Made by a program: the position numbers and the translations under genes | Origin: Escherichia coli | GTDB taxonomy: Bacteria > Pseudomonadota > Gammaproteobacteria > Enterobacterales > Enterobacteriaceae | Length of the DNA stretch: 1,853 nucleotides | Reading direction: 5' to 3' (one strand) | Assembly (NCBI RefSeq): GCF_003334335.1 | Contig: NZ_QOWQ01000098.1 | The notes under the pieces: generated by a model | What the model was told of the DNA's origin: nothing | What the model saw: only the letters and a program-made list of their open reading frames with translations | The model's database searches: none | In this document: positions 1 through 1,853 of the stretch, one piece after another | Layout: every line of letters starts with the position of its first letter | Position numbering within the stretch: position 1 is the stretch's first letter

Positions 1-631
1 GTGGTCCGGGTGGTCCGGCCTCTCCACGTGGGCCGGTGTCACCTTTCGGCCCCGGCGGTCCGCCCGGGTCACCTTTATCGCCCTTCGGTCCCTGTGGACC
101 TGTTTCTCCCCGTTCTCCCTTTGGCCCCGGCTCACCTTTTGGTCCGACCGCCCCCGTTGCCCCGGCTGGTCCCTGTGCCCCTGTGGCACCCTGTGGACCT
201 GTGTCCCCCTTCTCGCCCGCCGGTCCCCGGGCATTCTCTGCCCGTTTCTTCGCTTCCTCTGCACTCGCCGCCGACGCTTCAGCACGCTTCAGGATTTCCG
301 CTGCCACCGCTTCCAGCTCTGCAAGCGCTTTCGGGTAATACTGCGCCTCATCCTGTTCCATCAGAAATTTATTCAGCGTTCCCGGCTCAGAATCCGCCTT
401 CACCAGAATGTCACCCACATACGACGGGGCGTACCCTTCCGTGTTCAGCGTCACCCGGTACCACCCCGGCTCCACATCAAAACTGTAACTGCCGGTTTCC
501 CCCGGCTGCCCCTGCGCCACCGTGGTGACTATCACTGTCTCTGTGGTGCGTCGCGCTTTCAGCTCTATGGTGCATCCCGGCACCGGCTTCCCGGTGCCGT
601 CCTTCAGCACGCCCGATATTCTGACTGTCAT
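1..631 (-). CDS. stf: Side tail fibre protein, Stf-like N-terminal domain followed by collagen-like Gly-X-Y repeats; partial, 3' end runs off the window start
   Basis: The minus-strand frame (plus-strand triplets starting at position 2) is open from the ATG at 629-631 to the window edge; I checked every plus triplet in that frame for tta/cta/tca and found none. GGGAGA lies 5 nt upstream of the ATG. The translation [28 protein letters not shown]... matches, from memory, the N-terminus of lambda Stf ([17 protein letters not shown]...). Residues ~136-210 are Gly-X-Y triplets ([55 protein letters not shown]...). It is absent from the supplied ORF track, probably because it has no in-window stop. 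Confidence 0.8.
2..226 (-). repeat. Collagen-like Gly-X-Y triplet-repeat coding region within the stf-like gene
   Basis: Nineteen consecutive G-X-Y triplets from residue 136 (plus ~226) are followed by a 1-residue register shift and then more triplets to the window edge. Very GC-rich DNA (hand count 45/60 G+C over 1-60). A 14-bp exact direct repeat CCCTGTGGACCTGT occurs at 90-103 and 189-202. The proline-rich plus-strand ORFs 1..528 and 36..338 are the antisense shadow of these Gly/Pro codons. Confidence 0.8.
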
Positions 632-644: not shown

Positions 645-677
645 AAAAAAAACCGCAGTACCGGTTACCCGGTCTGC
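645..677 (-). terminator. Intrinsic-terminator-like hairpin plus T8 tract between J and stf, on the coding (minus) strand
   Basis: The minus strand reads GCAGACCGG-GTAA-CCGGTACTGC (9-bp GC-rich stem with a 1-nt bulge and a 4-nt loop; plus coordinates 655-677), then GG, then TTTTTTTT (plus-strand A8 at 645-652). The T-run ends 13 nt before the stf ATG. Pairing was done by hand; no free energy was computed. Confidence 0.45.
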
Positions 678-737: not shown

Positions 738-815
738 GTGGATAATGTACGATGTCCGGCTTTTGTCGTTTTCCGTCAATCACGAACAGATGGATGAAAC
801 CTCACTATCCACCTG

Positions 816-1853
816 TCACGATGCGGTATCAAAATCGTCTGTATAGGATTTCAGGTAAAACAGAACCGGGTCCGGGATCCGAATTTGACTCGTATCATGA
901 AGTATTGAACCACCCATGTAAAAAAGCACACCTGCTTCATACCTGAATGTAATTTCAACCCGCGCATCACCCTGTCCGGCAGGAATACCCCATGAGCCTG
1001 ACGCACTTCCGCCAACATCAGAATATACCGGCTCATATCTGCTGGCGTTTTTGGAAATCTGGACCTCCCGCTCCCCGGTTTTGACTTTGCCTGACCTGGC
1101 ATGAACGACAACTTTGTCATTTATCTTCATGATGAATTCACCTCTGGAAAAGGAATACGCCATAAGCATAAGCTTGCGATCAAACGGCATGTTGTCTTTC
1201 AGCAAAATCATTTTCTGAAAAGTCAGCTGGTTCTGAGTCATTACGCCCTGCCCCATATCAACCGTGTATCCCTTGACGATATCACCAATGATTCGGTCAG
1301 CGCTCATCGTTCCATTAATGGTGCAGTCTTCCGCAATCGTCACGTTATTCAGCGTACCGGAACTGGCACTGATATTCCCGCTGATATCGGCATTACGGGC
1401 CGTCAGCCTGCCGTCCGGCGTCAGGGAGAATGCCGGGGGATTGCCGCCGCTGGTAATGGTGGGGGCGGTGAGCGTCTTTATCAGCGCCTCATTGATAAAC
1501 GTCTGTCCCCCCTGCGTGACCAGTGCGGGTGTGGTATCACCATTCTCCGGATTAATGAATGCCACGCGGTCCGCTGCCAGCAGTATCTGGCTCTGCATCC
1601 CGTCAGGGGTGTTCTCAATACCGGCACCGATACCGGCAATATAGCGACGACCATCCTGCATCTGCTGTAGCTTCACCGCCCACATGCTGTTCAGGTCATT
1701 ATTTGTGTCCGTCTGCACACGCTGGATTTGCTGTATGGTGGCGTTCTGGTCCTCCAGCGTTTTACTGACCGTCTGCGTGATTTCATTGCGGGTTTCTGTG
1801 ATGGTGGTCTGCATTTCCGCCATCTCGTCCTTCAGCTGACTGTTGTCAATCTC
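816..1853 (-). CDS. J: Host specificity protein J (tail tip / central tail fibre), C-terminal portion; partial, 5' end lies beyond the window end
   Basis: The ORF track gives 816..1823 minus (335 aa) with the TGA stop at 816-818. The same frame stays open from 1824 to 1853 (…EIDNSQLKDE before the listed M), so the M at 1821-1823 is internal and not the true start. The translation contains MWAVKLQQMQDG, YIAGIGAGIENTPDGMQSQILLAADR, LTAPTITSGGNPPAFSLTPDG and NVTIAEDCTINGT, which I recognise as the conserved C-terminal third of lambda gpJ. The last ~151 aa diverge (see findings). Confidence 0.9.
   Translation of the reverse strand, partial: EIDNSQLKDEMAEMQTTITETRNEITQTVSKTLEDQNATIQQIQRVQTDTNNDLNSMWAVKLQQMQDGRRYIAGIGAGIENTPDGMQSQILLAADRVAFINPENGDTTPALVTQGGQTFINEALIKTLTAPTITSGGNPPAFSLTPDGRLTARNADISGNISASSGTLNNVTIAEDCTINGTMSADRIIGDIVKGYTVDMGQGVMTQNQLTFQKMILLKDNMPFDRKLMLMAYSFSRGEFIMKINDKVVVHARSGKVKTGEREVQISKNASRYEPVYSDVGGSASGSWGIPAGQGDARVEITFRYEAGVLFYMGGSILHDTSQIRIPDPVLFYLKSYTDDFDTAS

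Follow-up and report, generated by a model that had tools for sequence, protein, structure and literature searches.

Results

The J-stf junction and its phage context

The window, that is, the whole stretch of 1,853 nucleotides of Escherichia coli DNA analysed here (contig NZ_QOWQ01000098.1), carries parts of a J-like and a stf-like gene, both on the minus strand. In the list of open reading frames (ORFs), the 3′ part of the J-like tail-tip host-specificity gene occupies positions 816-1853, with its stop codon TGA at 818-816, and the frame continues past the high end of the window. Phage matches are annotated 'tail tip host specificity protein J'. The translation places the 5′ part of the stf-like side tail fibre gene at 1-631, with its ATG at 631-629, and this gene continues past the low end. 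Between the TGA and the ATG lies a spacer of 184 nt on the same strand, in which a Shine-Dalgarno (SD) sequence for stf, GGGAGA, can be read at 642-637 (minus strand). In a genome that is 100% identical over the J-stf junction (window 840-600), PGAP annotates the end of gpJ and the start of a 'prophage tail fiber N-terminal domain-containing protein' at the same positions. The translated stf-like product has a lambda-Stf-like N-terminal domain followed by collagen-like G-X-Y repeats. These repeats start after ~133 residues (window 1-235, minus strand), and lambda Stf differs here.

Among infectious lambdoid phages, PhiR12_1 to PhiR12_5 share 98-99% identity with the window. PhiR12_2 (99% identical) carries N, cI, Cro and Q (17478-17996), with a terminator-like site just downstream of Q, and its lysis, head and tail genes form one same-strand run through J to stf. 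In the record of this phage (PV340550), J is annotated as two coding sequences (40212-43076 and 43250-43741) with a gap between them, where the J frame of the window is open, and the tail-fibre assembly region (45503-48670) is split by an insertion sequence (transposase and ATP-binding helper). In E. coli SW071611 (L011, 9123-10448), a gene with a YadA C-terminal domain stands downstream of stf and of a DUF4376 (tfa-like) gene. This resembles the arrangement of eibA in prophage P-EibA; the stf starts of P-EibA and the window share 97% identity.

A terminator-like hairpin before stf

Within the spacer, we found an intrinsic-terminator-like element at 645-678 on the minus strand, where the sequence reads, 5′ to 3′, CGCAGACCGG GUAA CCGGU(A)CUGCG G UUUUUUUU AUGGGAGAAAUCU AUG. 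The GC-rich stem has 10 pairs (678-669 with 664-654), a single bulged A659 and a GUAA loop (668-665). A tract of eight U residues (U8, 652-645), preceded by G653, stands directly 3′ of the stem, and 13 nt (644-632), the SD included, separate this tract from the ATG. An earlier reading made from the letters of the window (the sequence-only reading) had described a terminator-like hairpin plus T8 13 nt before the stf start codon, and this was confirmed by folding and by a consensus scan. The isolated hairpin has a folding energy of −16.7 kcal/mol. Its 46-nt context folds at −21.4 kcal/mol, compared with −10.7 ± 2.6 kcal/mol for 200 dinucleotide shuffles of that context (z = −4.17), and none of the 200 shuffles was as stable. 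The consensus scan reported a terminator-like site at the hairpin in which only the inner 5 pairs were counted. The same reading had given the stem as 9 bp with one bulge and a GUAA loop; the bulge and the loop were as described, but the stem has 10 pairs, since the end placed at 677 omits the outer pair C678-G654.

Intrinsic terminators have a stem of ~5-14 bp, a loop of 3-8 nt and a U-rich tract, and the 10 bp, the GUAA loop and U8 found here lie within this description. In form, the hairpin with U8 looks like a normal transcription terminator. From the hairpin to the ATG, the consensus scan found no site resembling a sigma-70 promoter, in agreement with the earlier remark that no convincing −35/−10 pair stands there; 13 nt are too short to hold a promoter.

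Two other roles for the hairpin were considered and rejected. It is not a candidate for a bidirectional terminator, as the plus-strand stem has A8 before it and no T-run after it. Occlusion of the SD would involve CCC (685-683), which pairs with the GGG of the SD in the 46-nt fold, but this comprises only 3 bp, is missing from the centroid of a longer fold and is not conserved in hok-type relatives. Two short ORFs overlapping the hairpin, at 522-698 on the plus strand and 477-644 on the minus strand, also extend over the beginning of stf; one is antisense to it and the other out of frame.

Hok cassettes carry a homologous hairpin at their 3′ end

Database comparisons revealed that window 723-600 matches phage 1720a-02 and about 100 E. 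coli genomes over a 3′ untranslated region (UTR), the hairpin and the stf start; the BLAST matches to hok-bearing loci start at window 723. Between J and stf, loci of the 1720a-02 type encode a protein of 46 aa that PGAP names 'Hok/Gef family protein'; its NCBIfam Hok matches reach E = 6e-9 and fall under the curated cut-offs. Upstream of the hok ORF, the Rfam sok/hok-leader family RF01794 scored 63.5 bits in locus L008 (gathering score 59) and 57, 51, 51 and 35 bits in four other hok loci, with 87 bits in an R1-type plasmid used as control. Homologous hairpins lie 3′ of hok in loci L004 and L006-L009. The hairpins of the relatives, which read CGCAG(G/A)CCGG-GAAA-CCGG(U/C)(A/C)CUGCG followed by T7, are clearly the same element as that of the window. 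Pair covariation among the hok-type hairpins was not significant (70 of 500 shuffles reached the observed score), with 9 of the 10 pairs invariant and the only variable one occurring as A-U, G-U, U-A and one mismatch.

This type of hairpin was also found away from stf. A hok locus of the same subfamily (L135) lies by an ogr-like gene and tRNA genes with no stf adjoining, and has, in order, the 3′ element fbi (GGCACCC), ~24 nt, CCCGCAG-CGUAAGAA-CUGCGGG and a T-run. Its presence at this locus indicates that the CGCAG/CTGCG terminator travels with the hok cassette. The lom-bearing relatives PhiR5_1, P-EibA and lambda match the window only from 658, over the last stem bases, the T-run, the SD and stf, and the stems of lom-type hairpins differ in sequence from the window stem. 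The SD GGGAGA and the T-run are kept in both lom-type and hok-type relatives.

The spacer as a probable deletion scar

The fold-back of hok mRNA, in which its 5′ end (tac) pairs with fbi, has been described (PMC9841398). For the intact mRNA of 1720a-02, folding predicts a helix between nt 2-17 and nt 338-354, with the terminator as a separate 3′ hairpin; the R1-type hok locus has the same order, fbi and then the terminator. Local alignment to the 1720a-02 spacer matched window 784-722, in the 5′ portion of the spacer, to the promoter region of the hok cassette and the first 17 nt of its mRNA; the score of 47 compares with 16.2 ± 2.2 for 500 shuffles, of which the best reached 25. Further 3′, positions 720-632 align to the cassette sequence running from fbi through the stf start. 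On the minus strand of the window, the first 17 nt of a hok-type mRNA, the tac end GGGUGCCUUUGACUGAC, are located at 721-737 by this alignment and by the start of RF01794 in intact relatives. The fbi element GGCACCC follows at 714-720, pairing with 737-731 in the folds, and the former hok 3′ UTR linker from fbi to the terminator extends over 679-713 by alignment to 1720a-02. In intact hok cassettes the homologous element comes after fbi, which places it at the 3′ end of a same-strand transcription unit.

In intact cassettes, the 5′ end has the sequence GGGTGCCTTTGGCTGATGGC|CGGAGG and the region close to the 3′ end has CCGGATGGC|ACCG; the window sequence at the junction is GGGTGCCTTTGACTGACGGCACCC. 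This comparison places the deletion junction within a 6-nt microhomology at 723-718 on the minus strand, GACGGC (GATGGC in intact cassettes), with ~330 bp missing, and the missing part corresponds to sok, the leader and the hok ORF. Because the deletion would have joined both strands of the tac/fbi helix, it also accounts for a second hairpin in the window at 737-714 (minus strand), GGGUGCC (737-731)-N10-GGCACCC (720-714), with a stem of 7 bp. A search for intact hok cassettes preceded by the upstream sequence found in the window matched only the 29 scar-type genomes, and we infer the deletion of the hok/sok middle from more distant relatives (~82% identity).

Two features of hok/sok loci are found in the window, the complementary tac/fbi ends and the terminator hairpin downstream of fbi. 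The ORF list of the window contains no Hok/Gef ORF (~50 aa), and an Rfam scan of the window with E up to 1 gave no match. Since it has neither a toxin ORF nor a sok region, the window is not a hok/sok toxin-antitoxin system.

Other hok loci were recorded during these comparisons. The gpJ-stf spacer of E. coli M3 (L009, NZ_CP010183) carries an independent and different hok-cassette deletion, between CCGGAT(A/G)GC repeats, which leaves a truncated Hok ORF of 36 aa fused to the 3′ UTR. The hok cassette at the J-stf junction seems to decay repeatedly by deletions between short repeats. In E. coli O103:H2 12009 (L134, NC_013353; 532-2100), genes of the Ail/Lom and Hok/Gef families stand in tandem, and another ORF comes directly after fbi, with no obvious terminator. 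Text searches yielded no description of the position or the terminator of hokW-sokW of prophage Sp5 (PMC8621323), which was left out of the comparison.

A residual promoter

A remnant of the hok-cassette promoter was recognized at 744-779 on the minus strand, with a −35-like TTGACG at 779-774 and a −10-like TACATT at 749-744. The two are 24 nt apart, compared with 17 nt in intact cassettes, the alignment showing 7 extra nt, and no usable −35 was found at 16-18 nt from TACATT. As far as its letters tell, the remnant is probably inactive. With a promoter that looks inactive, the terminator may have little transcription left to stop in PhiR12-type phages. Another promoter-like sequence, TTGATA-17-GATAGT, was seen across the J stop codon (804-832, minus strand), and a transcript from it would reach the terminator before stf.

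Survey of lambda-like stf starts

We then compared 130 stf starts, of which 120 were located by a stf-start pattern in viral contigs and 10 came from fetched loci, with 37 distinct upstream sequences among them. A GC hairpin (−10 to −22 kcal/mol) followed by T5-8 ends 11-13 nt before the ATG in all 130, lambda included. The cargo upstream was lom in 115 places, hok in 9, a scar of the window type in 4 and an unrelated gene in 1 (L032), and for one further place (L127) the upstream sequence was too short to classify. A single slot before stf is filled by three unrelated stem sequences. It is this repeated occupancy by non-homologous elements, together with the canonical terminator form, that makes the case for a function. 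The hairpin is an ordinary feature of lambdoid tail regions.

The locus with the unrelated gene (IMGVR_UViG_2713896799_000028) has a lambda-type hairpin and T6 before stf, and the ORF upstream ends 59 nt before the hairpin. Within 700 nt upstream of stf, it has neither lom nor a J C-terminus of the lambda or window type.

Discussion

We consider it likely that the hairpin and U8 are the intrinsic terminator of a deleted hok/sok cassette, which would stop unmodified RNA polymerase and be read through by the Q-modified enzyme. In this explanation, a type I toxin-antitoxin cassette of the hok/sok type would formerly have stood between J and stf, and a deletion of ~330 bp between two GA(T/C)GGC repeats would have removed sok, the leader and the hok ORF. 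The survivors would be the promoter region with its 24-nt spacer, the first 17 nt of the mRNA, fbi, the 3′ UTR linker and the terminator, which would now adjoin the ribosome-binding site of stf, as the lambda lom terminator does. Unmodified RNA polymerase, coming from the residual cassette promoter or from stray transcription of J in the lysogen, would be released at the U-tract (652-645). Polymerase modified by Q, coming from the late promoter, would ignore the terminator and go on into stf and tfa. In lambda, the Q-modified polymerase reads through terminators along the late transcript. The hairpin has the structure, the homology and the position given above, and by analogy with lambda it would terminate transcription in vivo and be read through in a Q-dependent manner. 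Inserts in late operons (morons) carry a promoter and a terminator of their own, which allows their expression while the prophage is repressed (PMC3594210); lambda lysogens express lom (PMC7067206).

These results bear on the two proposals made in the sequence-only reading. One was that stf is reached only by read-through; the anatomy agrees with it, with Q and a single late operon in PhiR12_2 and the corresponding layout in lambda, and read-through by means of Q would be expected by the same analogy. The other was that the hairpin is the relic terminator of a lost lom-type moron, which was right about the kind of relic but not about its cargo, the element being homologous to the 3′ end of hok/sok. 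The two proposals appear to be compatible, and both appear to hold once the cargo is corrected. We found no support for the further suggestion that the hairpin tunes the stoichiometry of fibre to J.

The uniform presence of the element before stf could also mean that hairpin and T-run are retained chiefly as a component of the stf module, serving as an insulator independent of cargo or as a stabilising or processing hairpin before the ribosome-binding site. The element stands at the same distance in every stf start surveyed, whether lom, hok, a scar or the L032 gene lies upstream, the T-run and SD are common to lom-type and hok-type loci whose stems differ, and the element has twice outlived an independent internal deletion in a hok cassette, once in the window and once in L009. 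However, the same type of hairpin follows hok without stf in L135, the stem varies in sequence with the cargo and not with stf, and its survival after a recent deletion needs no selection; we regard this explanation as unlikely. A terminator left by a lom-type gene would fit the usual cargo of the site, as lom occupies 115 of the 130 places and lom terminators have the same position. Yet the window stem is unlike either class of lom hairpin, similarity to lom loci starts only at window 658, and the hairpin together with the 45 nt upstream of it aligns to hok cassettes, so that next to no credence is left for a lost lom.

It is very improbable that the scar is transcribed as a small RNA of ~93 nt, made up of both ends of the former toxin mRNA, with a regulatory role in PhiR12-type phages. 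Such an RNA would have two clean hairpins, a 32-nt linker and a U8 tail (−34.6 kcal/mol), the former mRNA start is preceded at a distance of 6 nt by the −10-like TACATT, and 29 E. coli genomes as well as infectious phages carry the scar with 98-100% identity. This identity, however, reflects recent common descent and does not demonstrate constraint, the −35/−10 spacer has 24 nt with no usable −35 at 16-18 nt, and the window has no Rfam match. Hardly credible, too, is a hairpin that arose by chance and leaves transcription unaffected. The weak covariation would allow it, but the fold is more stable than every shuffle (z = −4.2), U8 follows directly, and all relatives have hairpins at homologous or analogous positions.

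The preferred explanation, a terminator left by a hok/sok cassette, changes little in the general picture: the hairpin would be a standard terminator that closes an insert in a lambdoid late operon and is read through by antiterminated polymerase, as in lambda. Our results suggest that cargo at the J-stf junction is interchangeable (lom, hok/sok or other genes, or none at all), with each cargo bringing its own terminator 11-13 nt before stf. This pattern can aid the annotation of prophage tail regions and may help to explain silent side-fibre genes in lysogens. The decay of hok/sok at J-stf would leave recognisable shells, with two independent cases in the window and in strain M3, and in annotation such a shell could pass wrongly for a regulatory hairpin or a small-RNA gene.

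Comparison with known systems

The element resembles the lambda lom-stf (orf-401) hairpin with its T6, and the variants in lom prophages, in place and geometry, standing at the 3′ end of a late-operon insert between J and stf. It shares with the lom type a GC-rich stem of −15 to −18 kcal/mol, T6-8 and a distance of 11-13 nt, with the SD, to the stf ATG. Our literature search found no description of the lambda lom-stf hairpin as a mapped terminator. Unlike the lambda lom terminator, the window hairpin has a stem of unrelated sequence, and its cargo would have been hok/sok, now deleted.

The likeness to hok/sok of plasmid R1 and to chromosomal hok loci lies in the order of the elements, namely a promoter, a 5′ tac, a leader with sok, the hok ORF, a hairpin, fbi and a terminator (PMC9841398). 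Of the R1 elements, the window keeps tac, fbi and the terminator, and it is unable to act as a toxin-antitoxin because sok, the leader and the hok ORF are absent. The distance from fbi to the terminator is about 35 nt in the window, 30 nt in 1720a-02 and 8 nt in the R1 type.

Like the lambdoid morons in the sense of Juhala and Hendrix (HK97 gene 15, lambda lom and bor), the former cassette would be an insert between two conserved late genes (PMC3594210): J and stf flank the site, and the cargo varies among relatives. Unlike intact morons, the window has only the shell, with the cargo gene gone and the promoter probably disabled. On the whole, the element probably works like the lambda lom terminator before stf, and it probably derives from the terminator of a hok mRNA.
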